Positions 27,932 to 59,088 of a DNA stretch of 64,000 nt are shown one piece after another. The notes under the pieces are model-generated. The model did not search any database. It was not told where the DNA came from and worked only from the letters and a program-made list of their open reading frames with translations. Every line of letters starts with the position of its first letter. Within the stretch, counting starts at the first letter, position 1. The translations under genes were made by a program, and so were the position numbers. The DNA comes from Acutalibacteraceae bacterium (lineage in GTDB: Bacteria; Bacillota; Clostridia; Oscillospirales; Acutalibacteraceae): assembly GCA_045651285.1 (NCBI GenBank), contig JAZRSC010000014.1, forward strand, positions 26,783 to 90,782. Reading direction: 5' to 3'.

Positions 27932-28024
27932 TTTCGGTTACACCACCCTAGAAAATCAATTTTTGTAATACTCTTTTTCAAGCTAAATTGTGTTATCCCC
28001 CTAAAAATCATAGGGGGATATTTT

Positions 28025-30703
28025 TTATTCCACACAAGAAACTCCTGTTGTATTATAATAACTTATACTCTTTCCGTTAACCGCTCTCACAGTATAAATA
28101 TACTCTGTACCTTCAATAACATTTGAGTCAATATAAGTTGTATTTTCTGTACCAGTTACAGTTTCAAGCAAAGTCCAGTTTGTATATAAAGTTTTTCTGT
28201 AAATTCTGTAACTGTCGGCATTTTCGTTCTGATTGAATTCAAGGATAATTCCACTTGTATCCCTTGTAGCAGCAACTAACTCAGGAATACCTAAATACAT
28301 TAAAGCTGTTGACCCTTTATAACTTGACAATACTTTACCACTTACTGTGCGTACTGTGTATTTATAAGTCACACCATCCTGAACACTTCCATCTGTCCAA
28401 GATGATTTAGATGAAGCAACAGTGCTCATACCCTTCCATGAAGACCATTTACCTGTGGCAACATCGAGCTGCGAACGATAAATTTTGTAACCTGTTGCAC
28501 CTGTTGCCTTTGTCCATTTAACTATAATGCCATTGGCCCCATTAGAAACAGAAACTGTAGGCTCTGCTAAATACATAAGAGAAGCCGAAGCTTTATGACT
28601 GCTACTGCAAAGACCGTTAACAGCCTTTACTGTGTAGCGATATATTGTACCGCTTTTTACATTTTTATCTACCCAAGAGAATTTTGTTGCAGCGGTAGTA
28701 CCACGCTTTTGCCAACCTGTCCACTTGCCTGTAGTTGCATTATATTGTGAACTATAAACAGTATATCCTGCTGCACCACTAACCTTTGACCAAGAAACAT
28801 TTATCCCTGTTGAACTGTTAGCACTTTTTACTGTTGGAGTTTTAAGAATTACACCAACCCAACCACTTGTATTATATGCAGAAAGAGTACTACCTTTATA
28901 TGCTCTTACTGTGTAAGTGTAAACTGAACCAACCTTTACATTTTTATCTGTGTAAGAAGTAGCGGTTGTTTTAGCTACCTGTGACCACTTTGTAGCACCT
29001 GGTGCTTTTCTGTAAACTCTGTAGCCACCAGCACCACTTACTGCACCCCATTGAATTTTGATTGCAGTTGACGAAGTTGTAACTTTGGTAACAGATGGAG
29101 TTGTAAGAGTATATTTTACAGTCCAACCTGTAGAATTATAACTCGAAAGATTTGAACCATTTTCTGCTCTTAATGTGTATTTATAAGATTTTCCAACAGT
29201 TACACCTTTGTCTGTATAAGAAGTGCCTGTTGCTTTACCTAACAATACCCAATTACTACCATTATGTCTATAAACACGATACTGTGCCGCACCCGCTACC
29301 GCTTTCCAGTTAAGTGTTATACCAGAACCGATAACAGAATTGGTTTTAGTAATCTGTGGAGCTGCTATATAGTTTATTCCGTATGACTTATACGCACTCC
29401 ATGTACCATTAGCATAAACCCTTACTGCATAGTAATTAGGTTTACCTGAAGTTGCACCAGTATCTGTAATACTTAAAACATCTGAATTTACTGTTTTGAG
29501 AATTGTCCAAGATGTTTCGTCTTTTAATTTTCTGTAAATTCTGTATTTTTCAGCACCTTCAACCGCAGTCCACTTAACACCTACACCTTTTTGTGCATTT
29601 GCTAAAGTAACTTTAGAAACCATTCCGACATAACGGATAGTTGCCACATTTGAATATGCGCTTAAACTGTCGTTTTTACATACCAGTACGAGATATTCGT
29701 ATTCAACACCGCTTGATATTGATTTATCTGTTACTGTAAGAACTGTTGAAGCTACTTCTTCAATTCTTCCCCATTTGGTTTCACCAGATTTCCTCTTATA
29801 TACCCTATATCCAGTTGCACCTTCAACTTTATCCCAGGCAATTTTTACACCTGAACTAGAATTTGTAACAGTAACATTTGTAGCATCAATGTAGGTAATT
29901 GATTTACCTGCATACCAACCATAACCACTTGCATTTTTTGCTCTCACTGCATAAGTGTATGTTGTATTGTTCTGAATATTTTCTGTGTCTGTATATGAAA
30001 TATCTTTCCAAGTAGCGATTGCTCTGTAGCTCTTATCTTCGCCACCCTTACGATAAAGAAGATATTCAGTAGCACCAGGTACTGCGTTCCATTTTACTGT
30101 TATTGCTTTTTTACCCGCAGTAAATGAAACAATTTCACCTGAATCAAGTGTTGCAAAGCCAGTACCATCCTGCCCCGCAAACTTTTTGATTGTTGAAGTA
30201 GATGAATAATCACCAGAAACAAATTCAACTGTTGTTTTAGGGTGTATTTTATCAATTACCTCAAAAGTAATAAATGCAAATTCTTTGCCTGTGTTACCTG
30301 TGTTAAAGCCACTTGCACTAATAAATGCAAAGGTATATGCAGAATCATCATACATAGAAACACCGTGAGTGTGCATACCTGCAAATACTTCTGTTTCATT
30401 ACCATCCGCATCAGTAGTCACTACAGGTCCTGCATCTACAATTCTTAAAATCTTTTTATCAAATTTAACAGTTACCATAGCCCCTGTAACTGTCACACCA
30501 CTTGAAATATTGATTTTAAATGTCACTTTACCATCTTTAAAGATTGGTTGTGATGCATTAGAAACAGTACCATCACTTATAACATATTTTGACGCATCAA
30601 GATATGAGTCTGGCACTGCAACAGCCGAAACTGTTACCATTAAGCTCATAATAACAGAAACAACCATTAAAATTGCAAGAGTTAATTTTAATCCTTTTTT
30701 CAT
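28025..30703 (-). CDS. secreted giant protein: signal peptide + cohesin-like domain + 8 FN3-like repeats (paralogue of 23927-27931)
   Basis: 892 aa. MKKGLKLTLAILMVVSVIMSLMVTVSA signal peptide. Cohesin-like residues about 30-165 (nt about 30209-30616: VTGAMVTVKFDKKILRIVDAGP...YTFAFISASG...FAFITFEVID...TVEFV). Then 8 units of the same repeat type. The last five repeats are collinear with the last five of the neighbour. Confidence 0.7.
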   Translation of the reverse strand: MKKGLKLTLAILMVVSVIMSLMVTVSAVAVPDSYLDASKYVISDGTVSNASQPIFKDGKVTFKINISSGVTVTGAMVTVKFDKKILRIVDAGPVVTTDADGNETEVFAGMHTHGVSMYDDSAYTFAFISASGFNTGNTGKEFAFITFEVIDKIHPKTTVEFVSGDYSSTSTIKKFAGQDGTGFATLDSGEIVSFTAGKKAITVKWNAVPGATEYLLYRKGGEDKSYRAIATWKDISYTDTENIQNNTTYTYAVRAKNASGYGWYAGKSITYIDATNVTVTNSSSGVKIAWDKVEGATGYRVYKRKSGETKWGRIEEVASTVLTVTDKSISSGVEYEYLVLVCKNDSLSAYSNVATIRYVGMVSKVTLANAQKGVGVKWTAVEGAEKYRIYRKLKDETSWTILKTVNSDVLSITDTGATSGKPNYYAVRVYANGTWSAYKSYGINYIAAPQITKTNSVIGSGITLNWKAVAGAAQYRVYRHNGSNWVLLGKATGTSYTDKGVTVGKSYKYTLRAENGSNLSSYNSTGWTVKYTLTTPSVTKVTTSSTAIKIQWGAVSGAGGYRVYRKAPGATKWSQVAKTTATSYTDKNVKVGSVYTYTVRAYKGSTLSAYNTSGWVGVILKTPTVKSANSSTGINVSWSKVSGAAGYTVYSSQYNATTGKWTGWQKRGTTAATKFSWVDKNVKSGTIYRYTVKAVNGLCSSSHKASASLMYLAEPTVSVSNGANGIIVKWTKATGATGYKIYRSQLDVATGKWSSWKGMSTVASSKSSWTDGSVQDGVTYKYTVRTVSGKVLSSYKGSTALMYLGIPELVAATRDTSGIILEFNQNENADSYRIYRKTLYTNWTLLETVTGTENTTYIDSNVIEGTEYIYTVRAVNGKSISYYNTTGVSCVE

Positions 30704-34032: not shown

Positions 34033-34200
34033 TTGTTAGTCGTTAGGAATTAGGTGTTAGGTGTTAGGTGTTAGATAATAGAAAACTACATTCTCTCATT
34101 TACTCAAAATGAAACAATGTAGTGTCTGTTATTCATATTCAAATATCATCACGTCGAAGCTTCAGAAATTGTGCATTCTGCACTCTGCATTTTGCATTCA
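34033..34200 (-). repeat. composite 3'-flank element, copy A (follows ileS; includes the ileS terminator hairpin)
   Basis: On the plus strand: (TAG-N4)x6 at 34037-34074; hairpin arms ACTACATT and AATGTAGT (34085-34123); degenerate conserved box TTATTCATATTCAAATATCATCACGTCGAAGCTTC (34129-34163); (TGCA-N3)x4 at 34172-34196. Confidence 0.8.
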
Positions 34201-34201
34201 T

Positions 34202-37200
34202 TCACACTCTCTCAACTGCAATTTTCACATTCTCACCATTAATGTCCCAATCTTTTGCGTTAGCAGCTTCGCCAACTGTAATTGAGTCTGCAAGAACAAT
34301 TGTAGCAATTGCATCTTTATTTTTGAGTGCAATATCTGAAACCTTATCGTTACCTGAAAGTGTAACATTGATATGGTCTGTAACATTGAAGTCAGAATCT
34401 TTTCTCATTGTCTGAACCTTACTGATAAGCTCTTTTACAAAGCCCTCTTCAACAAGTTCTTCTGTGAGTTCAGTATCAAGTGCAACAGTAACACCTTTAT
34501 CTGAAACTGTGAATACGCCCTCTTTCTGAACTGTGTCAATAAGAACATCTTCAACAGCAAGTTCTACTGTACCACTTGCGAGTTCAAGAACAAGTTTACC
34601 ATCAGCATCAAGTGTCTTTTTAGCATCACTTGGAAGCTCTGCTAATGCATTTCTGATTTCACCTAATTGTTTACCATACTTTGGACCTAATGTCTTTAAT
34701 TGTGGTTTGAAAGTATATGAAACGAAAGAAGAAGCATCTGCGTCAAAGTCAACATTTTTAATGTTAAGCTCTTCACGGATAATATCTATAAAGTAGCCTT
34801 CAACCTTTTTGTCACAGTTTACATACATTGTGTTAAGTGGTTGTCTGTTCTTTAAGTTAGAACCATTTCTTGCCGCACGACCAAGAACAACAATATCAAC
34901 TACTTCGTCCATATTCTTTTCGAGTTCTTTGTCAATAAAGTCTTCACGTACTTCAGGGAAGTCACAAAGGTGAACACTTTCAGGAGCAGACTTATCTACA
35001 TTACAAACAAGATTTCTGTAAATTGCTTCTGCCATAAATGGAATCATTGGAGCGGCAGTTTTTGCAGTAACTGTAAGTGCTGTATAAAGTGTCATATATG
35101 CAGCAGTTTTGTCATCTGTTTCACCTTGTACCCAATATCTTTCTCTACCACGGCGAACATACCAGTTACTCATTTCATCTGTAAATTCCTGAAGTGCCTT
35201 TGCTGCTTCTGGAATTTTATAGTTAGCAAGGTTATCATCAACCGCTTTAACCATTGAGTAAAGCTTTGAAAGAAGCCATTTATCCATTACTGTAAGCTTA
35301 CAATCTTCTAAATTGTATTTAGTTGGGTCAAACTTATCAATATTTGCATAAAGAACATAGAAAGCGTAAGTATTCCAGAGAGTACCCATAAACTTTCTCT
35401 GACCTTCAACAACTGTTTTACCATAGAAACGGTTAGGAAGCCAAGGTGCTGAGTTAGTGTAGAAATACCAACGGATAGCATCTGCGCCATAGCTTTCGAG
35501 TGCTTCAAACGGGTCAACCGCATTACCCTTTGACTTGCTCATTTTCTGACCATTTTCATCTTGAACATGACCTAAAACTATAACATTTTTATAAGGTGCT
35601 TTGTTGAAGATGAGAGTTGAAATAGCAAGAAGCGAATAGAACCAACCTCTTGTCTGGTCAACTGCTTCAGAAATAAAGTCTGCTGGGAATTGTGCCTCAA
35701 ATAATTCTTTGTTTTCAAATGGATAGTGATGTTGTGCAAATGGCATAGCACCACTGTCAAACCAACAGTCAATAACCTCTGGTACACGGTGCATCTCTTT
35801 ACCGCAATCAGGACATTTAATTGTAACTGCATCAATAAATGGTCTGTGAAGTTCTACATCATCAGGACAGTTGTCGCTCATTGATTTTAATTCTTCAATA
35901 GAGCCGATTGAATGACGACAACCACATTCACATTCCCATATATTAAGTGGTGTACCCCAATATCTGTTACGGGAAATACCCCAGTCCTGAACATTTTCTA
36001 ACCAGTCACCAAAACGACCTTTACCAATGCTTTCAGGAATCCAGTTTATTGTGTTGTTATTTTTAATTAAGTCTTCTCTTACCTCTGTCATCTTGATAAA
36101 CCAAGATTCTCTTGCATAGTAAATAAGAGGAGTTGAACATCTCCAACAATGTGGATATTCGTGTTCAAATTTAGGTGCATCAAAAAGAAGCCCTGCCTTT
36201 TCAAGGTCAACTAAAACTAATTTGTCTGCATCCTTAACGAATGTACCAACATAAGGAGTTGGTTCTGCCATTAAGCCTGCACCATCAACTAATTGAATAA
36301 ATGGTAAATCATATTTTCTGCCGACTTTAGCGTCATCTTCACCAAATGCAGGTGCAATATGAACAATACCAGTACCATCTGACATAGTAACATAGCTGTC
36401 AGTTGTAATAAAGAAGCCTTTTTTATTCTGCTTGTCGCAAAGTGGTTTTACATAATCGAAAAGAGGAACATATTCTTTATGCTCTAAATCTGCACCTTTC
36501 ATTGTTTCGATTATTTCATACGCTTCATTTTCTTCTGTTTTTAATTTGCCGAGAACTTTATCAAGAAGTGCTTCAGCCATATAATATGTAAAACCATCTG
36601 CCGCCTTAACCTTGCAATATGTATCAGCAGGGTTTACGCAGAGTGCAACATTTGATGGAAGTGTCCAAGGTGTAGTTGTCCAAGCAAGGAAATATGCATC
36701 TTCACTTGCAACTTTAAAACGAACTACTGCTGAACGCTCTTTTACTGTTTTATAACCTTGTGCTACCTCGTGTGAAGAAAGTGGTGTACCGCAACGAGGG
36801 CAATAAGGAACAATTTTAAAGCCCTTGTAAAGAAGATTTTTTTCATAAATCTTTTTAAGTGCCCACCATTCTGACTCGATAAAGTCATTATGGTAAGTTA
36901 CATAAGGGTCTTCCATATCTGCCCAGAAACCAACTGTACGAGAGAAATCCTCCCACATACCCTTGTATTTCCAAACGCTTTCTTTACAATGACCAATAAA
37001 TGGTTCAAGACCATATTCTTCAATTTGCTCTTTACCGTCAAGACCTAAAAGCTTTTCAACCTCAAGCTCAACAGGAAGACCGTGTGTATCCCAACCAGCT
37101 TTTCTTGGAACCATACAGCCTTTCATTGTACGGTAACGAGGAATCATATCTTTAATAACACGGGTTAAAACATGGCCTATATGCGGCTTACCATTTGCAG

Positions 37201-37345
37201 TTGGTGGGCCATCGTAAAAGACATAAGGTGTTCCGTTCTTTCTGTCTTCAATACTTTTTTCAAAAATTTTCTGGTCACGCCAGAATTTTTCAATTTGTTT
37301 TTCTTGTTCAACAAAATTCACATTTGGTGAAATTGGGTCGTACAT
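34202..37345 (-). CDS. ileS: isoleucine--tRNA ligase (long, type 2 form)
   Basis: 1047 aa. PPTANGKPHIGH (HIGH motif), KMSKSKGN (KMSKS motif) and an editing-domain insert. Confidence 0.95.
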   Translation of the reverse strand: MYDPISPNVNFVEQEKQIEKFWRDQKIFEKSIEDRKNGTPYVFYDGPPTANGKPHIGHVLTRVIKDMIPRYRTMKGCMVPRKAGWDTHGLPVELEVEKLLGLDGKEQIEEYGLEPFIGHCKESVWKYKGMWEDFSRTVGFWADMEDPYVTYHNDFIESEWWALKKIYEKNLLYKGFKIVPYCPRCGTPLSSHEVAQGYKTVKERSAVVRFKVASEDAYFLAWTTTPWTLPSNVALCVNPADTYCKVKAADGFTYYMAEALLDKVLGKLKTEENEAYEIIETMKGADLEHKEYVPLFDYVKPLCDKQNKKGFFITTDSYVTMSDGTGIVHIAPAFGEDDAKVGRKYDLPFIQLVDGAGLMAEPTPYVGTFVKDADKLVLVDLEKAGLLFDAPKFEHEYPHCWRCSTPLIYYARESWFIKMTEVREDLIKNNNTINWIPESIGKGRFGDWLENVQDWGISRNRYWGTPLNIWECECGCRHSIGSIEELKSMSDNCPDDVELHRPFIDAVTIKCPDCGKEMHRVPEVIDCWFDSGAMPFAQHHYPFENKELFEAQFPADFISEAVDQTRGWFYSLLAISTLIFNKAPYKNVIVLGHVQDENGQKMSKSKGNAVDPFEALESYGADAIRWYFYTNSAPWLPNRFYGKTVVEGQRKFMGTLWNTYAFYVLYANIDKFDPTKYNLEDCKLTVMDKWLLSKLYSMVKAVDDNLANYKIPEAAKALQEFTDEMSNWYVRRGRERYWVQGETDDKTAAYMTLYTALTVTAKTAAPMIPFMAEAIYRNLVCNVDKSAPESVHLCDFPEVREDFIDKELEKNMDEVVDIVVLGRAARNGSNLKNRQPLNTMYVNCDKKVEGYFIDIIREELNIKNVDFDADASSFVSYTFKPQLKTLGPKYGKQLGEIRNALAELPSDAKKTLDADGKLVLELASGTVELAVEDVLIDTVQKEGVFTVSDKGVTVALDTELTEELVEEGFVKELISKVQTMRKDSDFNVTDHINVTLSGNDKVSDIALKNKDAIATIVLADSITVGEAANAKDWDINGENVKIAVERV

Positions 37346-37590
37346 TTTACTACCTCCATAAAAGACTAGTATTTTTCATACTGCCATACAAAGAACATAT
37401 TATCACGAAAACTGCTGTTTTGCAAGTGTTTATACTAATAAAAATCCAAAAAGTACTATATTGGTAACCAATAGTCATTTTTTATTTTAATTATTTTTTC
37501 ACTATATCTTTACAACTTGACTTGAATTGGGTATAATATGTATTTGGTAAAATATGTACTTTAATTTTCTCCAAGAAAGGATTTTTTAAT

Positions 37591-38697: not shown

Positions 38698-39869
38698 TGG
38701 ATATAAGAAAAGAATCTTTAAAAAAACATTACGAGTGGAACGGAAAAATCGAAGTAGTTACCCGTTGCCCTATTGAAACAAGAGAAGATATGTCTTTAGC
38801 ATACACCCCCGGTGTTGCAGAAGCATGTCTTGAAATAGAGAAAGATGTCAACAAATCTTTTGAATTAACAAGAAGGAATAATCTTGTTGCAGTTATTACT
38901 GATGGCACTGCAGTTTTAGGGCTTGGTGATATAGGTCCAGAAGCGGGTATGCCTGTTATGGAAGGTAAATGTGCACTCTTTAAGGCATTTGCAGATGTTG
39001 ACGCGTTCCCACTTTGTGTAAAATCAAAAGATACAGACGAAATTGTTAAAACTATTTCTTTAATTTCAGGTAGCTTTGGTGGTATAAACTTAGAAGATAT
39101 TTCTGCACCGAGATGCTTTGAAATTGAGAAAAAGTTAAACGAATGTTGTGATATTCCAATATTCCACGACGACCAGCACGGTACTGCAGTTGTTGTTCTT
39201 GCGGCACTTCTCAATGCATTAAGGGTTGTAAAGAAAAATATTGAAACTGCAAAAATTGTTGTGAATGGTTTAGGTGCGGCAGGTACTGCAATTTCTAAAA
39301 TGCTTATTTCTGCAGGTGCTAAAAATATGGTGCTTGTTGACAGAAAAGGTATTATTGAAGAAAGTGATATTTCTTTAGGTGAAGAAAGACAGACATTAGC
39401 AAAAATCACAAATAAAGAAAATTTAAAAGGCGACCTTTCTGTTGCTATAAAAAATGCAGATGTATTTATTGGTGTTTCTGCACCTAATATATTAAGTGAA
39501 GAAATGGTAAAAACAATGAATAGTGATGCTATTGTTTTTGCCATGGCTAACCCGACACCGGAAATTATGCCTGATATTGCAAAAAATGCGGGAGCAAGAA
39601 TTGTCGGCACAGGTCGTTCAGATTTTCCAAATCAGATTAACAATGTTCTTGTTTTCCCTGGTATTTTCCGTGGTGCACTTGATGCGAATGCTACAAAAAT
39701 CACAGAAAATATGAAGCTCGCGGCGGCGAAGGCTCTCGCAGAGCATATTCCCGAAAACGAGTTGAACGAAGAAAATATAATTCCATCTGCCCTCGATAAA
39801 ACAATCGCTTACGAGGTTGCGAAGGCAGTTAAAGAACAAGCGGTAGTTGATAAAGCAGTTAGAATTTAG
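38697..39869 (+). CDS. NAD(P)-dependent malic enzyme (short form)
   Basis: 390 aa. LAYTPGVAEACLEI, VAVITDGTAVLGLGDIGPEAGMPVMEGK, FGGINLEDISAPRCFEIE and NGLGAAGTA. The ATG overlaps the prfB TAA (TAATG). Confidence 0.85.
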   Translation: MDIRKESLKKHYEWNGKIEVVTRCPIETREDMSLAYTPGVAEACLEIEKDVNKSFELTRRNNLVAVITDGTAVLGLGDIGPEAGMPVMEGKCALFKAFADVDAFPLCVKSKDTDEIVKTISLISGSFGGINLEDISAPRCFEIEKKLNECCDIPIFHDDQHGTAVVVLAALLNALRVVKKNIETAKIVVNGLGAAGTAISKMLISAGAKNMVLVDRKGIIEESDISLGEERQTLAKITNKENLKGDLSVAIKNADVFIGVSAPNILSEEMVKTMNSDAIVFAMANPTPEIMPDIAKNAGARIVGTGRSDFPNQINNVLVFPGIFRGALDANATKITENMKLAAAKALAEHIPENELNEENIIPSALDKTIAYEVAKAVKEQAVVDKAVRI

Positions 39870-39889
39870 AAAATTCTAACTGCTTTTTT
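39855..39889 (+). terminator. intrinsic terminator of the malic enzyme gene
   Basis: GCAGTTAGAATTT-AGA-AAATTCTAACTGC plus TTTTTT. The stem includes the stop codon. Confidence 0.7.
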
Positions 39890-39890
39890 A

Positions 39891-40012
39891 ATTGAGAATT
39901 GAGAGTTGAGAATTGAAAATTTTAGAAGGCTTCGCCTTGATTATAATTAAATATGAATAAAAAAGACTACATTCTTTCATTTGGAGTAAATGAGAGAATG
40001 TAGTTTCGTTTT
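39891..40012 (+). repeat. composite 3'-flank element, copy B
   Basis: (TTGA-N3)x4 at 39892-39916; box TTAGAAGGCTTCGCCTTGATTATAATTAAATATGAATAA at 39922-39960; hairpin GACTACATTCTTTCATTT-GGAGT-AAATGAGAGAATGTAGT at 39965-40003; then TTCGTTTT. Confidence 0.8.
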
Positions 40013-40038: not shown

Positions 40039-40452
40039 CTACTCAACAGGTACTAACATCAGCGTAGTTGCAAGATGAATAAAGAAAATAATCAATTTAG
40101 TTACCTTTTGAATTATCAATTCAACCATAACAACATCGTTATTAGTCTTAGCTAATTTATATAATTGTATTGTTCGCTTTAAATGTCTGCTTCGATGTAT
40201 TTCAAAAACACTCTGGTATTTATCAACAGCATCAAAATATTTCTGTGCCATGTGCCCTGTGTAAATATTATAAAATATAAAAAGAGCGGTATGGAAAAAG
40301 AATGTAAAAGCAACTGCGGAATCATCTAAAATAAAATTAAATAATAAACTCAACCCAATAAATAAAACTTGTAAAAAAAGAAAAACTCTGTTATAGTTTA
40401 TAATTTTATTTGCAGAAATAGTTTCTCTGTTAATTTTTTTACTTTTTGCCAT
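40039..40452 (-). CDS. hypothetical membrane protein
   Basis: 137 aa with 3-4 hydrophobic segments. No recognisable family. Confidence 0.4.
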   Translation of the reverse strand: MAKSKKINRETISANKIINYNRVFLFLQVLFIGLSLLFNFILDDSAVAFTFFFHTALFIFYNIYTGHMAQKYFDAVDKYQSVFEIHRSRHLKRTIQLYKLAKTNNDVVMVELIIQKVTKLIIFFIHLATTLMLVPVE

Positions 40453-40550
40453 AAATAATCCCTCCCTTTATAATTATTATACCCCAAGCAAAAAAGATTG
40501 TCAATATTTTAACACACTTATGAAAAATAATCAAAAATCCTATCATTTGT

Positions 40551-40746
40551 GCCAGTGGTCAGTTGTCAGTAAGTCAGTGGTCAGTTCATGTGTAAGTTAT
40601 AAGTAAAAATTCATCCTATCATCTTAGTTGGTTTTAATACCAACCAAAATGACAGGATGAACTATTTTTTTATTCAACAATAATTATACTCAAGGCGAAG
40701 CCTTCCAAAATTCTGCATTTTGCATTTTGCATTCTGCATTCTGCAT
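40551..40746 (-). repeat. composite 3'-flank element, copy C (follows 40779-41450)
   Basis: (CAGT)x5 at 40553-40585 (period 7/8); hairpin TTCATCCTATCAT...ATGACAGGATGAA at 40610-40661 with a nested TTGGTT/AACCAA stem; box ...TACTCAAGGCGAAGCCTTCC at 40665-40706; (TGCA-N3)x5 at 40714-40745. Confidence 0.8.
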
Positions 40747-40778
40747 TTTTTAAGGCTCAGCACTTTCGCGTAGTGAAC

Positions 40779-41450
40779 TTATTTTTTCTTTGGCTCAAGA
40801 AGATTGAGTTTAGAAAGAATGAATACACCTGCAATGCTTGCAACGATTGTTACAAAGAGAAGTGTACCAACGCCAAAGTTTGGTGAAAGAAGAAGAACTC
40901 CACAACCAACTAAAAGTGGTAAAATTGTAATTCTCCAGTATTTACCAAGGTATGATGCAAATAACGCACCGAAAAGTGCTGTTGTAACATTATTGAAAGC
41001 AGGTGCTAAAGCAGAGCCTGGTTCCATAAGCTTTGCAACTGTATCGCCAAAAACAAGAACACCAACTGCAATAATAACTGTTGTAACAATTGCAGAAACA
41101 CCGATAGCAATTGTAGAAATTACTTCGCCTTCTTCTGAGTTTGCTTTAACTTTTGCAGAGTTCATAGCATTAAGACCGCAAGGAAGTTTTAAGTTTGTAA
41201 TGTTACCTGTAACGAAACTTAAATAAGTACCACCTGCACCTAACATTGGTGTGTAAGTGATAACTTCAACAATTGCAGAAATCCAGTAAATAGCAAGAAC
41301 ACCAACAATGTTTTTGTTAAAAACATCACCGATTGATGGCCATGCATTATTGTGAACACAAATCAAAGTCGGAACTGAGAAAAGAACGATTATAGCAAGT
41401 ATGCTCCAGATTTTACCACGTGTATGAGCTTTATCAATATATGATTTCAT
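40779..41450 (-). CDS. multi-pass membrane protein of unknown function
   Basis: 223 aa, about 6 TM. Downstream partner of 41467-42291, 16-nt gap, same strand. Confidence 0.5.
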   Translation of the reverse strand: MKSYIDKAHTRGKIWSILAIIVLFSVPTLICVHNNAWPSIGDVFNKNIVGVLAIYWISAIVEVITYTPMLGAGGTYLSFVTGNITNLKLPCGLNAMNSAKVKANSEEGEVISTIAIGVSAIVTTVIIAVGVLVFGDTVAKLMEPGSALAPAFNNVTTALFGALFASYLGKYWRITILPLLVGCGVLLLSPNFGVGTLLFVTIVASIAGVFILSKLNLLEPKKK

Positions 41451-43944: not shown

Positions 43945-43948
43945 AAAG

Positions 43949-44190
43949 TTGCTAGTATGGCTAGTGTGGCTAGTTGGCTAGTTGTCAGTCATTAGGAAAT
44001 AGATAAAAGAAACTACACTCTATCATTTAAGATAAACCTTAAACGAAAGAGTGTAGTCTTTTTTATTCATATTTAATTACAATCAAACGCGTAGCGTTTC
44101 CTTAACTCAGCACTCAGCCTTCAGCACTCAGCACTTAAATTTCCAACGCAGTTCCGACAATTCCGAATTACGCATTACGCATTCCGAATT
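43949..44190 (-). repeat. composite 3'-flank element, copy D (follows the SNF transporter; overlaps its stop codon)
   Basis: Irregular (TAG/CAG) array 43953-44002; hairpin ACTACACTCT...AGAGTGTAGT 44012-44057; box with AAACGC-GTA-GCGTTT 44058-44102; (TCAG-N3)x4 at 44107-44131; (CCGAATT/ACGCATT)x4 at 44163-44190. Confidence 0.8.
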
Positions 44191-45556
44191 AAATCTTTAC
44201 AATCCCCAGCGCATCAAGAACTGATGAAATGAGAATTAAAACAATGCAGATTGGTGCAAAATATTTTATAACAATCAAGAAAAGCTTCTTTCTTTTGAAT
44301 TTTCCTGTAAGCTCGATTTCTTCTATAAACATATCTGGCTTTACAATGTAACCGACAAAAACGCAAGTTAAGAATGCAACTATCGGCATTAAAACACTGT
44401 TACTTATAAAGTCAAAGAAATCAAGGAATGCCATACCAATAATTTTAATATCAGCAAGTGTTCCGTAACCGAGTGCAGAAAGAGCGCCTAAAATTATTGA
44501 GCCAATTAACACTATGAGTAATGTTTTATTTCTTGAAAGACCTGTTTTATCTTTTACAATAGAAACAACTGTTTCCATAAGGGAAATTGAAGATGTGAGT
44601 GCGGCAAAAAGCACTAAAACAAAGAATAAAATACCGACTATCGAGCCACCTGCCATACTTTCAAATACCTTCGGAAGTGTGACAAACATAAGTCCCGGAC
44701 CTTTGCCTAATGCACTTTCGTCACCGCCTGAGAAAGCGAAAACCGCAGGGATAATCATAAGACCTGCCAAGAAAGCAATACCGGTGTCAAAAAGCTCAAT
44801 CTGTTTTACAGAACTTTCAAGACCTACATCTTTTTTCATATATGAGCCGTAAGTAATCATAATACCCATAGCAAGTGACATTGAGTAGAAAAGTTGACCC
44901 ATAGCCGCAAGGACCGTTGTTGCAGAGAATTTTGAAAAATCTGGCATAAGGTAAAACTTGACACCCTCTAAAGCACCTGGCATAAACATTGCGTAACCTG
45001 CAATAAATATTGTGAGTATAACAAGTACAGGCATCATAATTTTACTTACTTTTTCAATACCCTTTTCAACACCTAAAAGTACAACCAGTGCAGTAAGACC
45101 AATATAAATTGCAAACCATAAAAGTGGTTCTGCAGGTGCAGAAATAAACGAATCGAAAAATCCGTCAGTTGCGGCAGATGAAATATTCCCTGTTATAAAT
45201 ACAGTACAATATTTAATAATCCAACCGCCAATAACTGAATAATACGGGAGAATTATAATAGGGACTATTGAGCAAAGCCATCCAACAAACTTGAATTTTT
45301 TATTGAGTTTACCAAATGCTTCAATAGCACTGACTCCTGTTTTTCTGCCTATTGCAATTTCGGCACACATTAAAGCGAAACCGAATGTAATTGCTAAAAT
45401 AATATAAACAAGTAAAAATATACCACCACCATATTTTGCCGCGAGATATGGGAAACGCCAGATATTGCCAAGACCAACCGCAGAACCCGCAGTTGCAAGA
45501 ACAAAGCCTAATTTACCTGAAAAGGTACTTCTTTTTTCTGCCATAAAATTTACCAT
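44189..45556 (-). CDS. sodium-dependent neurotransmitter:sodium symporter (SNF) family transporter
   Basis: 455 aa. GFVLATAGSAVGLGNIWRFPYLAAKYGGG is the SNF signature. An alternative start at 45544 (MAEKRS) is possible. Confidence 0.85.
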   Translation of the reverse strand: MVNFMAEKRSTFSGKLGFVLATAGSAVGLGNIWRFPYLAAKYGGGIFLLVYIILAITFGFALMCAEIAIGRKTGVSAIEAFGKLNKKFKFVGWLCSIVPIIILPYYSVIGGWIIKYCTVFITGNISSAATDGFFDSFISAPAEPLLWFAIYIGLTALVVLLGVEKGIEKVSKIMMPVLVILTIFIAGYAMFMPGALEGVKFYLMPDFSKFSATTVLAAMGQLFYSMSLAMGIMITYGSYMKKDVGLESSVKQIELFDTGIAFLAGLMIIPAVFAFSGGDESALGKGPGLMFVTLPKVFESMAGGSIVGILFFVLVLFAALTSSISLMETVVSIVKDKTGLSRNKTLLIVLIGSIILGALSALGYGTLADIKIIGMAFLDFFDFISNSVLMPIVAFLTCVFVGYIVKPDMFIEEIELTGKFKRKKLFLIVIKYFAPICIVLILISSVLDALGIVKI

Positions 45557-45616: not shown

Positions 45617-45850
45617 GAGAGGGTGAAAAAATGACTTATGCGCAAAACCTTAGTACATTTTTCCTAATTTTTGATGCAGAAGACTTTTTCTTCACCCCGA
45701 AGCTGTATTAAAATACTGCGAGCGGGTAAAAAAATAACTTATGCGCAAAACCCTAATTTTTTCTGATTTTTGATGCAGAAGGCTTTTTCGTCACCCCGAA
45801 GCTATATAAAGATACTGCGAGAGGGTGAAAAAATGACTTATGCGCAAAAA
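45617..45850. repeat. tandem repeat of about 100 nt, about 2.3 copies, each carrying a long imperfect hairpin (family 2)
   Basis: The anchor ATGCGCAAAA recurs at 45638, 45741 and 45840. Arms CTTTTTCTTCACCCCGA and CGAGCGGGTAAAAAAA (45685-45735), and CTTTTTCGTCACCCCGA and CGAGAGGGTGAAAAAA (45783-45834). Confidence 0.85.
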
Positions 45851-51055: not shown

Positions 51056-51943
51056 ATGCTTGAACTCGATAACGCTTTAAATCTTATTGTAAAAGGTTTA
51101 GAAAGCACTACAAAAGAATTAGGCTTCAAGGTTGTTTACCCTGATGGTGTAACCCCACCTGAAGCACCAGTTTTTAAAGAAAACGACATTTCTTACATCA
51201 GTTACACAGGTGAAAAAGGAAGAATAAGAATTATATTCAAGAAAAAGCAACTTGCTTTACATTGTGCAACTGCTGATGAAGAAGATATTGCTGATGATGA
51301 CATGAAAAGGATTTCGCTCTCTCTTCTTGAGTTAGACGAATATGAAGAAAAAGATTTAACGTACATCTTCGATGAATTTACAGACTCACTTCTTAACACA
51401 TTCAAATCAAAACACGATTTGCGTGGTAATGTTAAAATGCCAACACCAGTTTCAAAATCAAAAGCAAAAAATGGTGTTCAGTATTTTGACGCAGTTACAT
51501 TAGGTAGTAAAATAGGTAATATTTACCCTGAATTAAAAGAAGAATATAAAAATAATGTTACTGAATATGGCGAGTTTCTTCCCGAAGAATTCTTTGTTAC
51601 ACATGGTAACAAATTTATAGAAGAAACAATTCGTCAGAACGACAAACAAAAAATGCGTAAGCTCTTTAATACACTTAACGAGATTTATGATGATGGCACA
51701 AATGATACTCAAAGTCTTATAGGTGTTACGATTTTAGGTACAATTCTCAGCGAGAATCTTGACCTTTTACCTATTGCTGAACCTTACTTTGGTGATGTTA
51801 TGAAAGAGCCTGTTACTGAAATAATTAAATATCTTTCTTCACCAAGAAGCAAGGGTGCTAAAATGAGACTCAAAAACCCACCAATTTACAAACCAAAAAC
51901 AAAAAAGAAAAAAGGTTTCTTACAAGAAATGATGGGAATGTAA
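51056..51943 (+). CDS. hypothetical cytoplasmic protein
   Basis: 295 aa from the ATG at 51056 (GAGAGG RBS). The track starts at the TTG at 51041. No recognisable family. Confidence 0.45.
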   Translation: MLELDNALNLIVKGLESTTKELGFKVVYPDGVTPPEAPVFKENDISYISYTGEKGRIRIIFKKKQLALHCATADEEDIADDDMKRISLSLLELDEYEEKDLTYIFDEFTDSLLNTFKSKHDLRGNVKMPTPVSKSKAKNGVQYFDAVTLGSKIGNIYPELKEEYKNNVTEYGEFLPEEFFVTHGNKFIEETIRQNDKQKMRKLFNTLNEIYDDGTNDTQSLIGVTILGTILSENLDLLPIAEPYFGDVMKEPVTEIIKYLSSPRSKGAKMRLKNPPIYKPKTKKKKGFLQEMMGM

Positions 51944-51980: not shown

Positions 51981-52063
51981 TTTGTCTTACGACAAGTTAT
52001 AAGTTATAATTGCTTCGCAAGTTAAAATAGAAATAGATACACTTTTTTGTCGAATTAATTTAA

Positions 52064-52129
52064 ATGCAGAAGGCTTTTTCTTCACCCCGACCACATACAA
52101 ATGTATGCCGAGCGGGTGAAAAAATGACT
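52064..52129. repeat. solitary copy of the family-2 hairpin repeat
   Basis: ATGCAGAAGGCTTTTTCTTCACCCCGA-CCACATACAAATGTATGC-CGAGCGGGTGAAAAAATGACT. Same arms as 45685-45735; the loop differs but is itself palindromic (CATACA/TGTATG). Confidence 0.8.
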
Positions 52130-52188
52130 AACCCTCGAAACTCCTATAGAGTTTCGAGGGTATTCTGCGTTAAATTAGTCGATAAAAA

Positions 52189-53229
52189 TTATTCTTCGCG
52201 TTTTTTGCGTGTTAACACAAATGTCGCTGCAGCTGCTACGCAAACTGTTGCTGCAAGAGCAATACCTGCATCGCCTGTACCTTCAGAACCGCTTGATGAA
52301 CCAGCTGAAGTTGTTGCATTCGCTGCATTTGTTGTAGCCTGAGCCTTAGTTGTATCATCATCGCCACCGAAAAGACCCATAAAGAAGTCAATGATAGCAT
52401 TAAGAATATCTTCAAATGAATCGAAGTCAAGACCTAAACCTTTGAGAATTTCAAGGAACGCATCACTTATACTGAATGCACCATCAACAAGTTGTTCAAT
52501 CATATCAGTGATTTCTGCATTACCAATAAGATTTAAAATTGCGTCTGCATAATCTTCAAAAGTAACACCGTTACCTGAAAGTAAATCTCTGATAACCTGA
52601 ATAAGTGCATTGGTTGAATTTGCATCTGCAGGAGCCTCTGTTGTTTCTTCTGCATTAGGGTCTGTTGTAATTTGTTCTGGAAGATTTAATGTAATGATTT
52701 GTGATTCTACAAGAGTTGTTGTGATAATCTCGTTAGAATCGTTGCCATCTTCTGTAAGGAATTCGTTAACATAAAGGTTAATTGTTGTTGAAGGTTGTGT
52801 TGAATCAATAATTTTGAAAGTTATGTAAACTAAATCTTTCGCAGATTTCTTTGTTACACCACTTGTTGAAATAAAACCAAATGAATATTGATATTTATTT
52901 GATTTAAGACCGTGAGCCCATTCACCACTGAAGTTTGGAATAAAGTTACCATCAGCATCTTCAGCACCTACAGGACCAGCATTTACAACTTTAAGTTGTT
53001 CTGTATCAAAATCAACAAACATATTAAGACCAACGAGCTTTGTTATTGCAGGTGATTTAACAACCACTGTAAAAGTATCAGTTGTTACTGATGATACCTC
53101 TAATGCCGCTGCATCATAAGAGCCTTCTATTACGCGTGTAGCAAGACCAGGTGTTGCTACTGCAAAAGCAGTTGGCATAATTCCTGCAAATATCAATACC
53201 GCAAGAAGGACTGCGAGAACTTTCTTCAT
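52189..53229 (-). CDS. cell-surface protein: signal peptide + cohesin-like domain + acidic helical linker + C-terminal hydrophobic anchor
   Basis: 346 aa. MKKVLAVLLAVLIFAGIMPTAFA signal peptide. The cohesin-like block LVGLNMFVDFDTEQLKVVNAGPVGAEDADGN...YSFGFISTSG...LVYITFKIID...TINLYV is paralogous to the N-termini of 23927-27931 and 28025-30703. C-terminus: GIALAATVCVAAAATFVLTRKKREE. Confidence 0.6.
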   Translation of the reverse strand: MKKVLAVLLAVLIFAGIMPTAFAVATPGLATRVIEGSYDAAALEVSSVTTDTFTVVVKSPAITKLVGLNMFVDFDTEQLKVVNAGPVGAEDADGNFIPNFSGEWAHGLKSNKYQYSFGFISTSGVTKKSAKDLVYITFKIIDSTQPSTTINLYVNEFLTEDGNDSNEIITTTLVESQIITLNLPEQITTDPNAEETTEAPADANSTNALIQVIRDLLSGNGVTFEDYADAILNLIGNAEITDMIEQLVDGAFSISDAFLEILKGLGLDFDSFEDILNAIIDFFMGLFGGDDDTTKAQATTNAANATTSAGSSSGSEGTGDAGIALAATVCVAAAATFVLTRKKREE

Positions 53230-58810: not shown

Positions 58811-59088
58811 GTGCTGAATACTGAACAAAGTAGTGCTGAATGCTGGGTGCTGAGTGCTGAGTTTAGGAAGGCTTCGCCTTGATTGTAATTTAATATGAAT
58901 AACAAAAACTACATTCTCTCATTTTTAGTTAATAAAATTTAAATGATAGAATGTAGTTGTTTTTATAATATTACAATGCCAACGCAGTTCCAAAATTGTG
59001 CATTATGCATTGTGACTTGTGCATTTTACAATGCTGACCGCAGGTCCCGAAATTCAGCGCTCAGCACTCAGCACTCAGCATTCAGCAC
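58811..59088 (+). repeat. composite 3'-flank element, copy E (between HAD hydrolase and the convergent small feo gene; arrays on both sides are mutually inverted)
   Basis: (CTG-N4) array 58814-58859; box TTTAGGAAGGCTTCGCCTTGATTGTAATTTAATATGAATAA 58862-58902; hairpin AACTACATTCTCTCATTT...AAATGATAGAATGTAGTT 58908-58957; (TGCA-N3)x4 at 58999-59023; (TCAG-N3)x5 at 59054-59085. Confidence 0.85.

Follow-up and report, generated by a model that had tools for sequence, protein, structure and literature searches.

Length-capped heptanucleotide arrays as probable arms of a modular repeat family in uncultured Clostridia and phages

Short arrays of tandem seven-nucleotide words are attached to intergenic elements in the genome of an Acutalibacteraceae bacterium and, on balance, are probably the outer arms of small, non-coding, modular, and quasi-palindromic mobile repeats of the MITE/REPIN/BIME kind. 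Read outward from the center of an element, which is non-coding and measures ~130–300 nt, the arm unit consists of a GC mini-hairpin with a GNA triloop, a CCGAA-like linker of 5–6 nt, and an array of the form (AYT-NNNM)x4-AYT. In a complete element, the word of one side returns inverted on the other, and the arrays thus work as terminal inverted repeats or long stem arms. The arm grammar, its capped length, the inverted pairing in complete elements, and the restriction to certain lineages can be read directly from the loci compared here. Searches of the literature on heptamer repeats together with MITEs, Clostridia, or mini-hairpins turned up no such family, and we regard it as previously undescribed.

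We analyzed a window of 64,000 nucleotides, i.e., the whole stretch of DNA under study. A periodicity scan of the window gave nine runs of period 7, where a first-order Markov shuffle predicts ~0.07, and 0–2 runs for each other period from 4 to 13; five runs at period 14 are period-7 arrays seen at doubled period. Eight of the nine lie inside five intergenic elements (E1–E5), and the ninth (51890-51914) is A-rich low-complexity sequence. The array coordinates listed in a preliminary description of this DNA were all verified against the window sequence, confirming that the arrays are real, and its interpretation is upheld in part, including its view that the arrays belong to the repeat elements. 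It had set aside decayed coding sequence and CRISPR, in which repeats of 24–40 nt are separated by unique spacers of similar length; both remain rejected here. No ORF fits inside the elements, and the 7-mers are contiguous, without spacers. Corrections to the description are that E2 has a one-sided array only and that the array at 43947-43984 has a period of 8–9 rather than 7 (TRF and sequence). Also missed were the array at 58832-58862, an inverted partner 97% complementary to 59060-59089, and the general relation that it exemplifies, namely, that the paired arrays of a complete element are reverse complements.

TRF called period-7 arrays at the array coordinates given below for E1–E5, apart from the E4 left array, with the call for the E4 outer array falling at 44167-44191 and the E5 inner right array called as period 14. 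E1 begins with a left array of TGTTAGG repeated 5.9 times (34034-34074, plus strand; outward CCTAACA; TRF, periodicity scan, and sequence), which has no adjoining mini-hairpin. It continues with a central AT-rich hairpin, CTACATT..AATGTAG, at 34086-34122 (fold −18.2 kcal/mol, z −4.0), whose U run is on the minus strand and which, from this predicted fold, is likely the terminator of ileS (34202-37345, minus strand). A degenerate junction box with the palindrome GAAGCTTC (34156-34163; alignment and sequence) is followed by AGAA and the right array, ATT-GTGC/CTGC/TTGC, of 31–32 nt (34168-34199, plus strand; TRF and periodicity scan). In E2, the malic-enzyme gene's own intrinsic terminator (39852-39886, plus strand; a 16-bp stem and T run conserved in the ortholog L016) stands directly before the single array, which spans 32 nt (39890-39921, minus strand; TRF and periodicity scan), reads AATTGAG on the plus strand (outward ATTCTCA), and corresponds to AATTGAA in L016. 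The mini-hairpin AAGGC-TTC-GCCTT (39926-39938, minus strand; outward-strand triloop GAA) lies 4 nt from this array, and the central hairpin (39964-40006; −16.7 kcal/mol, z −6.3, UCUUUUUU tail) is terminator-like for the gene at 40039-40452 (minus strand). E3 has a left array of CAGTGGT/CAGTTGT with one 8-nt unit (40553-40585, minus strand; outward CACTGAC; TRF), non-complementary to the right array. Its 25-bp central hairpin (40609-40663; −36 kcal/mol, z −10.3), different in sequence and the same in shape, carries a U run and is likely, on folding grounds, the terminator of the gene at 40779-41450 (minus strand). The mini-hairpin AAGGC-GAA-GCCTT (40692-40704, plus strand) then leads to the right array, ATT-YTGC x5 + ATT, which at 38 nt is the longest of the window (40710-40747, plus strand; TRF and periodicity scan).

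E4 and E5 show how arms are stacked. The E4 left array (43947-43984, minus strand; TRF) has the 8–9 nt period noted above (outward NACT-AGCC(A)), a word type common to loci L096, L009, and L015. The central hairpin, with U runs on both strands, lies between convergent genes (44013-44057; folds of −23.1 and −27.0 kcal/mol). On the right, the mini-hairpin AAACGC-GTA-GCGTTT (44085-44099, plus strand) precedes an array of ACT-CAGC x4 + ACT, 31 nt long (44105-44135, plus strand; TRF and periodicity scan), and a second junction box, CCAAC-GCA-GTTCC (44143-44155, plus strand), precedes an outer array of AATT-CCG/ACG, 32 nt long (44159-44190, plus strand), that abuts a transporter gene (44189-45556, minus strand) and recurs as an identical 32-mer in the MAG locus L008. 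E5 has a left array of AGTGCTG (58832-58862, minus strand; TRF), with degenerate units out to about 58810, which is the inverted partner (97%) of the outer right array of TCAGCAC x5 (59054-59089, plus strand; TRF and periodicity scan). Between them are the mini-hairpin AAGGC-TTC-GCCTT (58868-58880, minus strand), a central hairpin with U runs on both strands (58908-58958; inverted-repeat search and fold), the junction box CCAAC-GCA-GTTCC (58979-58991, plus strand), an inner right array of ATT-GTGC/ATGC, 31 nt long and without a left partner (58995-59025, plus strand; TRF), and the mini-hairpin GACC-GCA-GGTC (59036-59046, plus strand).

The same grammar fixes the length and phase of the arrays at other loci. 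Array length by the grammar is 31–32 nt, with a mode of 32. One survey gave an array-to-hairpin gap of 4–5 nt, and an independent scan gave 5–6 nt in 38 of 43 unique modules, with heptad position 7 never T. Of 38 arrays next to a box, 27 have a GAA, GCA, or GTA triloop, and a CCGAA-like linker joins hairpin and array. The GNA mini-hairpins, 11–17 nt long, are inverted around the center and stacked in a mosaic fashion, with arms in up to three layers; no GTAG motif was found at the hairpin foot, where the conserved flank is CCGAA. The array words had been described as unrelated. They all read AYT-NNNM in box-anchored phase and differ in the NNNM part only, forming a network of single-base mutational steps around the AYT anchor. 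The companion statement, that the period is kept and the word varies, is borne out in this form: anchor and 7-nt step are constant, and NNNM changes.

Copy number within arrays is capped. In high-GC phage loci, exact (ATTYTGC)n arrays number 21 for n = 2, 21 for n = 3, 43 for n = 4, 2 for n = 5, and 1 for n = 7, and the length histogram for all words peaks at 32–33 nt. The open-ended copy number of slippage-type repeats was not found: arrays stop at four units plus AYT, and only plus or minus one unit varies. The window and a MAG of another species-level genome have the same heterogeneous 32-mer (CCG-ACG-ACG-CCG pattern), so arrays are not always fast-evolving. The cap at four units plus AYT, the fixed distance of 5–6 nt to the mini-hairpin, and the invariant AYT anchor together favor some constraint on the arrays, and the spacing-dependent recognition raised in the preliminary description is possible.

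Left and right arrays are complementary in 10 of 15 element layers (25–32 of ~31 nt), and the paired arrays use at least five different words on otherwise similar scaffolds. Predicted folds of complete elements place array on array, at −112 kcal/mol (z −12.4) for E5 and −104 kcal/mol (z −14.2) for the L008 element. Arm pairing is not obligatory, because three of the five window elements (E1, E3, and E4) have non-complementary arrays. The use of many words in one genome is awkward for sequence-specific inverted repeats bound by a transposase.

The elements are tied to gene ends. All window elements lie at gene 3′ ends, and arrays are present in three of eight convergent, two of nine tandem, and none of nine divergent gaps of the window. 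In this low-GC genome, the center of the element is a long AT-rich hairpin flanked by U runs, which are found on both strands for E4 and E5. With predicted folds of −17 to −36 kcal/mol, it looks like a bidirectional terminator and appears, from folding and position, to terminate the flanking genes. Where relatives lack the element, ordinary GC terminators stand at the corresponding sites.

Beyond the window, the arrays follow lineage and element. We counted 45 period-7 arrays in 174 kb (window and MAG loci), against 0–4 for each other period, and only three in 841 kb of control DNA from other Clostridia, gathered via the malic-enzyme gene, two of the three being in the two closest relatives; thus, the enrichment is specific to the lineage and to the elements. 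None was found in 94 kb of relatives with an 86–88% identical neighboring protein, which have ordinary terminators instead at the two sites compared. Further uncultured Clostridia/Oscillospiraceae genomes and many phage contigs show the arm grammar as well. The window has five copies within 25 kb, seven MAGs together have 15 loci with a box, and phage contigs have dozens. One MAG holds two element copies at different loci that are 97% identical over 222 nt. The assembly of L096 stops inside an array.

Array and box content differs at orthologous sites between the window and L016, L017, L001, L012, and L096. The E2 array and its L016 ortholog differ by three parallel G-to-A changes at one phase, and both keep the AGTT variant of unit 3 and the 32-nt length; these parallel, same-phase changes look like concerted evolution, as judged from this one aligned pair.

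Phage copies were found by a degenerate grammar pattern only; exact searches of the viral collection for the main box and the CCGAATT 32-mer gave no match. An element of ~130 nt is present or absent at two independent sites among phages whose major head proteins are 97–98% identical, and its breakpoints are clean (empty ATTT|GAAAGGAG versus filled ATTT|AATTCGG...CGACT|GAAAGGAG). No target duplication was found at the phage sites, where filled and empty alleles overlap by at most 1–3 nt of T. Inspection of the chromosomal copies by eye showed no direct repeats but says little, since the arrays there fade into degenerate units. At both phage sites, the only two available for this comparison, the left flank is T-rich and TGAAAGGAG stands to the right. 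A few flanking bases also distinguish the filled from the empty alleles. Given these flanking differences and gene junctions sharing TGAAAGGAG, module exchange by recombination, rather than transposition, could explain the polymorphism. One-heptad polymorphism is seen at both sites: phage L144 is one unit shorter than L149 and L151 at the tail site, and L143 is one unit shorter than L145 at the head site. In phages, the element sits between the stop codon of one late gene and the ribosome-binding site of the next, the gene for the major head or major tail protein; function, rather than selfish spread, could account for this consistent placement. Every array of a multi-copy phage contig lies on the same strand (7/7, 7/7, and 5/5) and keeps one orientation with respect to the direction of the genes; the window has arrays in both orientations. 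The two arms of phage L123 differ systematically, with a G-A mismatch at one position of each heptad.

Under the mobile-repeat reading, the elements would spread as non-autonomous mobile DNA, and the heptad word would vary by point mutation, after which the variant would be homogenized within the array and between both arms. Register-shifted pairing between the periodic arms, or slippage, with subsequent repair could plausibly bring this about and would keep the length while the word changes. The preliminary description had suggested slippage tied to the element; the one-heptad difference between close phages and the three parallel G-to-A changes in the L016 ortholog speak for this idea in part; the arrays are not open-ended microsatellites. 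The central hairpin may have been co-opted as an intrinsic terminator of the flanking genes. The most likely mobilizer would be an enzyme that reads single-stranded hairpins, e.g., an HUH/Y1 transposase of the IS200/IS605 or RAYT type, a candidate suggested by the lack of target duplication, the subterminal hairpins of a type unusually stable in single-stranded DNA, and the bias to one strand seen in phages. As DNA, mini-hairpins of the GCGNAGC type have extraordinary stability (PMC13037366), subterminal hairpins are what the IS608 TnpA recognizes before it cuts some distance away (PMC3201880), and transposition via single strands is linked to lagging-strand DNA at replication forks (PMC5027513). 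Pfam searches found no transposase, HUH, HutP, or ribbon-helix-helix domain among the 20 window ORFs scanned, and no transposase or TnpA was found among the 10 ORFs of phage L110 scanned; two window proteins had no exact-match record. As a tentative extension of fairly low probability, the array and the GNA mini-hairpin may form a ruler-defined recognition module for such a candidate machine, e.g., an HUH-type or single-strand-specific transposase or nickase. The machine would bind the hairpin and read the periodic AYT track, as Rep proteins read iterons beside an origin hairpin, and the variable NNNM positions would be a co-evolving or freely drifting specificity code.

Among other explanations, a functional RNA at gene junctions is unlikely, and it could coexist with a mobile origin by exaptation. 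The complementary 32-nt arrays would form a stem that is cut by RNase III or blocks exonucleases and so defines or stabilizes mRNA ends, in the manner of phage T7 RNase III sites, REP, and Correia elements. Predicted array-on-array stems of 31–34 bp with very strong z-scores agree with this idea, as do the position of every window element at a gene 3′ end, that of the phage element exactly between the late-gene stop codon and the RBS of a major head/tail gene, and the constant array orientation versus gene direction in multi-copy phage contigs. However, an array stem is impossible in E1, E3, and E4, the E2 array lies behind the gene's own strong terminator, the recurrent G-A mismatch of L123 argues against selection for pairing, and a stem does not explain the 7-nt period. 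No Rfam family matched: at gathering thresholds there was no hit on the window, phage L110, or 17 MAG/metagenome loci (bar one unrelated T-box), and E-value mode on E5 and L110 gave chance-level matches only. A double-stranded DNA platform for a protein that polymerizes in 7-bp steps, modeled on omega/ParB of the Firmicute plasmid pSM19035 and with possible roles in nucleoid organization, partition, or repression, we consider improbable. The omega heptad consensus is WATCACW, which the heptads found here do not fit. At least six words within 25 kb of one chromosome would call for many or very relaxed specificities, no ribbon-helix-helix or ParA/ParB gene lies beside the elements among the ORFs scanned, and the tight link to single-strand-type mini-hairpins is left unexplained. 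In its favor are the capped length, the conservation of period and AYT anchor amid variable positions, and the agreement of four full heptads plus anchor with the functional minimum of the pSM19035 parS (PMC9499535).

Arrays that arose incidentally, as heptanucleotide microsatellites slipping near stable hairpins and without any role in the element, are distinctly improbable. Heptameric repeats are over-represented in many bacteria, with polymerase slippage proposed as the cause (PMC4692102), which lends the idea some weight, as does the existence of one-unit length polymorphism. Grammar-free (CAGCACT)n and (ATTTTGC)n repeats also exist in Legionella, Erwinia, and cyanobacterial plasmids and giant-virus contigs; when E5 was compared by BLAST with collections of phages and plasmids, the only matches were unrelated (CAGCACT)n microsatellites of this sort, from Legionella, Erwinia, and Kovacikia plasmids. 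Yet true microsatellites among these data vary broadly in length, whereas the arrays have a hard cap (43 with n = 4 versus 2 with n = 5), a fixed phase and mini-hairpin distance, words matched in inverted orientation across ~200 nt, and the identical heterogeneous 32-mer in different species-level genomes; the length cap and the inverted pairing largely refute the microsatellite reading. The preliminary description had pointed, speculatively, to HutP as a precedent, and a HutP/TRAP-like scheme would make the arrays RNA sites for an oligomeric protein that reads a 7-nt-spaced triplet and controls the adjacent terminator. In the HutP antiterminator RNA site, which goes with a hutP gene, two groups of three UAG triplets with 4-nt spacing precede the terminator within a 5′ leader. 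The inward order of array, GC hairpin, and U-rich tract, with an AYT (or ARU) triplet every 7 nt, resembles this arrangement, and in the tandem-gene cases E1 and E3 the transcript reaches the array before the terminator hairpin. Still, the scheme is very improbable: TAG occurs in a single array (E1 left, antisense to ileS), the elements are at gene 3′ ends rather than in 5′ leaders, the E2 array is downstream of a terminator, the palindromic layout puts opposite-sense arrays within one transcript, no HutP/TRAP-like gene or domain is found among the 20 window ORFs scanned, and presence/absence in near-identical phages is unexpected for a dedicated regulatory site. Least probable of all, and scarcely credible, are invertons, in which the inverted arrays would be recombinase sites for the site-specific flipping of an asymmetric promoter/terminator segment. 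Inverted repeats of ~32 bp do surround asymmetric segments of 100–200 bp with TATAAT-like and terminator-like sequences, but the inner segment is quasi-palindromic too, convergent genes border most copies, many elements are single-armed or have unmatched arms, and a single internal orientation is found in seven filled head-site and three filled tail-site phage copies. We also rejected an all-frame stop-codon insulator, because most words have no stop, and target-site duplications piled up by repeated insertion, because the flanks are inverted rather than direct. Reiterative extension, as by telomerase, of the two 3′ ends of a linear intermediate was attractive, as it would yield inverted one-word arrays, and was rejected because the identical heterogeneous 32-mer in different genomes argues against de novo synthesis from a single 7-nt template.

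The mobile-repeat family is best placed by comparison with known systems. It shares with REP/BIME/REPIN the short GC-rich extragenic hairpins at gene 3′ ends, alternating or inverted into larger palindromes and mosaic clusters, the several sub-families per genome, and the effects on terminators and mRNA ends; those repeats are recognized by GC-rich imperfect palindromes of ~20–40 nt that recur in extragenic DNA, often as inverted pairs, and the inverted GNA mini-hairpins are their counterparts here. Unlike them, it shows no GTAG-type consensus, its hosts are Clostridia and phages rather than mostly Proteobacteria, and its hairpin is coupled at 5–6 nt to a heptad array of 31–32 nt, an arrangement undescribed for REP/BIME; no RAYT was seen among the ORFs scanned. 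Like MITEs (e.g., pneumococcal BOX, Neisseria Correia, and Bacillus bcr1), the elements are small, non-coding, multi-copy, and intergenic, with terminal inverted repeats, presence/absence polymorphism, built-in terminator or promoter-like parts, and a distribution common to hosts and phages (cf. PMC11602168); in contrast to MITEs, they show no target-site duplication at the sites compared, and their terminal repeats are internally tandem (4.4 heptads), with many words on one scaffold. The PATEs of IS200/IS605 resemble the present elements in having subterminal hairpins as the likely recognition feature, no target duplication, and ends at a defined distance from the hairpin, and their strand bias in unidirectionally organized genomes may have a parallel in the one-strand arrays of three multi-copy phage contigs (PMC3201880, PMC5027513, PMC6006769); differences are that no TnpA was found among the ORFs scanned, that the two phage sites define no tetra- or pentanucleotide target, and that the hairpin stands ~37 nt from the tip, farther than in IS608, with a periodic array in the interval.

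Intergenic tandem heptamers are themselves not new. Cyanobacterial STRR, the TAACTGA repeats of Beggiatoaceae, and the GGGAATC-type repeats of Xanthomonas and Nostoc are lineage-specific, with several words per genome and sometimes inverted pairs, and the available text of the two reports gives two to 43 copies and describes no coupling to a GNA mini-hairpin, no fixed length of 4.4 units, and no AYT anchor (PMC4679880, PMC4692102). The arrays here differ further in being parts of a larger element with clean insertion/deletion alleles. The omega/ParB parS of pSM19035 has the exact 7-bp period, a Firmicute host, and a functional unit of at least four contiguous heptads (PMC9499535), but it reads WATCACW instead of AYTNNNM and lies upstream of plasmid promoters beside the genes of its binding protein, whereas here many words stand at chromosomal and phage gene ends. 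The HutP site, (UAG-N4)x3, likewise has a triplet with a 7-nt step beside a terminator-like hairpin and differs in the triplet, the position (here 3′ ends, both strands), and the arrangement of copies, with no hutP gene among the ORFs scanned.

That some bacteria are curiously rich in heptanucleotide tandem repeats has been recognized for decades, and we know of no established mechanism. The present case is unusually well defined, with a fixed length, a fixed hairpin phase, matched inverted partners, and clean insertion/deletion alleles in phages, so that the question "why seven?" becomes testable as a search for the enzyme or binding protein that measures 4.4 heptads from a hairpin. The repeat family is common to uncultured gut Clostridia and phages; it breaks metagenome assemblies and could serve as a marker linking phages to hosts. 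If the array and mini-hairpin do form a ruler-defined recognition module, the family would represent a new class of mobile element moving between Clostridia chromosomes and their phages, with a module that delivers ready-made terminators and gene-junction cassettes.

The window is chromosomal DNA of 35% G+C, with sporulation, chemotaxis, cohesin and housekeeping genes. All array coordinates of the preliminary description proved correct against the sequence, and the 7-nt periodicity it had noted was borne out by a periodicity scan, which found nine period-7 runs in the window versus ~0.07 expected per first-order Markov shuffle. Other periods between 4 and 13 gave 0-2 runs each, and the five runs at period 14 are period-7 arrays counted at double period. 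Tandem Repeats Finder returned period-7 arrays at 34034-74, 34168-99, 39890-921, 40553-85, 40710-47, 44105-35, 44167-91, 58832-62 and 59054-89, and assigned period 14 to the array at 58995-59025 and period 9 to that at 43947-84. Eight of the nine runs fall within five intergenic elements (E1-E5, from left to right), which together occupy ~2% of the window. All five touch the 3' end of a gene, and arrays lie in 3/8 convergent, 2/9 tandem and 0/9 divergent gaps.

Other features share this stretch. A perfect sigma-70 consensus promoter (TTGACA-17-TATAAT; 40476-40504, minus strand) sits between the left array of E3 and a small hypothetical membrane gene (40039-40452), itself flanked by E2 and E3 and lacking a Pfam match. 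A separate repeat family has a 99-nt unit, present in 2.3 tandem copies at 45617-45849, downstream of a transporter gene, with a third copy (68-72% identical) 6.3 kb off at 52047-52145 and a recognisable relative in the orthologous gap between genes of L097 (7300-7385), a genome free of the elements; the unit contains a long stem (TTTTTCGTCACCC ... GGGTGAAAAAA) and has no Rfam match. A cohesin-domain protein is encoded at 52189-53229. Probable surface proteins are encoded by three very large ORFs on the minus strand, all internally repetitive: 9854-13714 (42/126-nt tandem repeats, 13168-13481; 243-nt repeats, 10965-12300), 23927-27931 and 28025-30703, the latter two with repeats spaced ~255-282 nt, or multiples, across 24000-30100.

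An alignment of the five elements, all turned the same way, and copies read in other genomes define a modular, quasi-palindromic repeat family: a central region with two arms pointing outward. Read from the centre towards the tips, an arm consists of a GC mini-hairpin with a triloop (the box), a short linker (usually CCGAA, CCACA or CCTAA) and a phased array, (AYT-NNNM)x4-AYT, with a modal length of 32 nt. Examples of the mini-hairpin are AAGGC-GAA-GCCTT, GACC-GCA-GGTC, AAACGC-GTA-GCGTTT, GTC-GCA-GAC and AAC-GCA-GTT; of 38 arrays next to a box, 27 have GAA, GCA or GTA as the loop, and hairpin and array are separated by 4-5 nt on one measure and, on a second, by 5-6 nt in 38 of 43 unique modules. 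GCGNAGC-type hairpins are exceptionally stable as single-stranded DNA, d(GCGAAGC) having a Tm of 76.5 °C (PMC13037366). In the low-GC lineage, the centre combines an AT-rich stretch (ATTATAATTAAATATGAATAA) with a long AT-rich hairpin; central hairpins, whose predicted folds range from -17 to -36 kcal/mol and which have a U run on either side, resemble intrinsic terminators acting in both directions. Stacked arms also occur: on one side, E4 and E5 each have two layers of array plus box, and a copy in another genome (L002) has three on each side, in mirror order. Tandem modules made of a constant linker, (T)ATATCG, and a hairpin (TTTTGC-GAA-GCAAAA, TATGC-GTCA-GCATA, ACCTTGC-GTA-GCAAGG) occur in L017 (430-600) and L009 (~620-700), their stems differing unit by unit around a centre that is GNA-like throughout.

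The array words had been described as unrelated; they turn out to be related, their NNNM parts linking by single steps (TTTA-TTCA-CTCA-CTTA; CTGC-TTGC-GTGC-ATGC; CTGC-CAGC; CCGA-ACGA-ACGC). A box-anchored scan, which fixes position 1 as A and position 3 as T by construction, shows T (92% of units) or C (8%) at position 2, A or C but in no case T at position 7, and variable bases at positions 4-6. A NACT anchor fits the left arrays of E3 (outward, CACT-GAC) and E4 (43947-43984; outward, NACT-AGCC(A), period 8-9). Period 8-9 arrays of this GGCTAGT type take the place of heptad arrays in some elements, and were seen at window 43947-43984, L096 1411-1459, L009 4315-4345 and L015 5798-5827; contig L096 terminates inside its array, which suggests that such repeats break assemblies.

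Array length is capped, and the arrays are not free microsatellites. Exact (ATTYTGC)n arrays at 20 high-GC phage loci number 21 for n=2, 21 for n=3, 43 for n=4, 2 for n=5 and 1 for n=7, the four-unit counts being inflated by ascertainment since the phage scans were seeded with grammar parts, which leaves the scarcity of longer arrays unaffected. Over all words, lengths at these loci peak at 32-33 nt. The (ATTTTGC)n runs of low-GC giant-virus and other low-GC viral contigs (L245, L247, L248, L252, L254, L263, L264, L269, L271 and L276) are open-ended, reaching 13 units, and are ordinary microsatellites whose word recurs in the length-capped arrays (31 nt) of high-GC phages. Plasmids of Legionella antarctica (L223), Erwinia (L224) and Kovacikia (L225) carry (CAGCACT)x6-8 microsatellites in the TCAGCAC word of the window, with neither mini-hairpin grammar nor length cap; the Erwinia array adjoins an IS110-family transposase gene.

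Of 15 element layers examined, 10 have a left array that is complementary to the right one (25-32 of ~31 positions); arrays that are not partners score 7 on average. A single scaffold (array, AAGGCTTCGCCTT, central hairpin, GACCGCAGGTC, array') was found with at least three words, AGTGCTG (E5, L011), AATTAAA (L005) and AATTGAG (L013), the arms matching in each. E5 and the L008 element are predicted to form single large folds with array paired to array (-112 kcal/mol, z -12.4, and -104 kcal/mol, z -14.2, respectively). Because the arrays of E1, E3 and E4 are unmatched and E2 is one-armed, pairing is common and not obligatory. A minimal form, two inverted 31-nt arrays (AATGCAG x4, ATTCTGC x4) 12 nt apart, makes a perfect hairpin with no inner boxes in L261 (9939-10012) and L270 (4753-4825).

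The family is restricted to certain lineages. The box TTATTCA..TCAAGGCGAAGCCTTC was found at 15 loci in seven species-level MAGs whose labels read Clostridia, Oscillospiraceae or Acutalibacteraceae (with goat rectum and sheep rectum as further labels in two cases), followed by a heptad array at 14. Window and loci add up to 174 kb and contain 45 period-7 arrays, every other period giving 0-4; as a control, DNA surrounding the malic-enzyme genes of other Clostridia (841 kb) held three, two of them in the two closest relatives, and 94 kb from six assemblies with a neighbouring membrane protein 86-88% identical held none. The sites orthologous to E3/E4 in L097, L098 and L100 carry ordinary GC-rich terminators or other sequence, the E1 site in L001 and L012 has a different version of the element, and the 40779 gene is directly followed in L096 (89.6% nucleotide identity) by an array of another type. 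At the malic-enzyme 3' end, the window array and its L016 ortholog differ by three parallel G-to-A changes in the same phase, keeping the unit-3 variant and 32-nt length next to a differing box. L017 lacks an element at that position and carries one upstream of ileS, a place without an element in the window; its ileS leader is ~680 nt, including array and mini-hairpins, and that of the window (37346-37590) only ~245 nt, with no T-box match at the Rfam gathering threshold. Two loci within one MAG carry copies 97% identical over 222 nt.

A degenerate pattern, CCGAAATT(NNNNATT)x4, which does not require the mini-hairpin, matched 39 phage loci, nearly all with a GC mini-hairpin directly upstream; scans with two other words added 19 and 35 viral loci. 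Several viral contigs hold 5-7 array copies each, all on the same strand. Bona fide tailed phages are represented by L249 and the L110-type contigs, which encode terminase, portal, capsid, tail and tape-measure proteins and whose G+C (53-63%) is far from that of the window. Noncoding stretches of the high-GC phage contigs L249 (~4500-5600, original coordinates), L253 and L268 (several sites) are crowded with mosaic repeats. Besides several ATTYTGC arrays of 31 nt, these comprise other heptad arrays (CCATCCT, CATCCTT), and L253 and L268 also have REP-like palindromes (GTCATCCTGAGCGGAGTGCGAAGC...GAAGGATC). The L249 stretch, ~1 kb long and located after the portal domain, is read through by a spurious 1008-aa ORF.

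In a siphovirus-like group, a compact element of ~130 nt (array, aagg, GTCCCAC-TTCG-GTGGGAC, TATTTAAATA, CCGCC-GCA-GGCGG, caCCGA, array') lies exactly between a late gene's stop codon and the major head gene's ribosome-binding site, with a second site before the major tail gene. Whole elements are present or absent as alleles: of the contigs whose head proteins are 97-98% identical, seven carry an element at the head site and six do not, nor does L156 (head protein 93% identical); tail-site occupancy varies independently. Breakpoints are clean in the empty (..ATGATTT|GAAAGGAGAA...) and filled (..ATTATTT|AATTCGG...CCGAATTTTTCGACT|GAAAGGAGAA...) tail-site alleles, whose comparison reveals no duplicated target apart, perhaps, from 1-3 T; a TAA stop codon is restored by the insertion, and the ribosome-binding site is undisturbed. 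The left array is exactly one heptad shorter in L144 (tail site) and L143 (head site) than in L149, L151 and L145, i.e., one-unit slippage.

Several rival explanations bear on these observations. The arrays could be a plain slippage product, a reading favoured by the one-unit polymorphism and opposed by the length cap. They could also be sites for a DNA-binding protein stepping by 7 bp, as for omega/ParB, which needs at least four heptads (PMC9499535), or a HutP-like RNA site. For whole elements, the rivals are RNA processing or stability elements, to be considered with their position at gene 3' ends, and invertons, with their inverted arms. Alternatively, the filled and empty phage alleles could have arisen by recombinational exchange of gene-junction modules. 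Heptamer repeats are over-represented in bacteria and are described as unexplained (PMC4692102, PMC4679880).

REP/BIME/REPIN elements and MITEs are the nearest in architecture; target duplication, a defining feature of MITEs, was looked for and not found here. The heptad-armed elements matched no Rfam family, and no description of fixed-length heptad arrays with GNA mini-hairpins as repeat-element arms was found in the literature; we file the family as a MITE/REPIN-like repeat, a variant without a match in Rfam or the literature searched. We infer that the elements are non-autonomous mobile DNA. As no duplicated target was seen, the mini-hairpins are of the DNA type and the phage arrays keep to one strand, their mobiliser probably reads single-stranded hairpins, by analogy with IS608 TnpA, which recognises subterminal hairpins and cleaves at a distance (PMC3201880); strand bias in the IS608 family derives from the lagging strand (PMC5027513). 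No such enzyme turned up among the 20 window ORFs and ten phage L110 ORFs scanned. Words would drift by point mutation and then be homogenised within and between arms through register-shifted pairing of the periodic arms followed by repair, leaving length unchanged, and the central hairpin is probably used by the host as a terminator.
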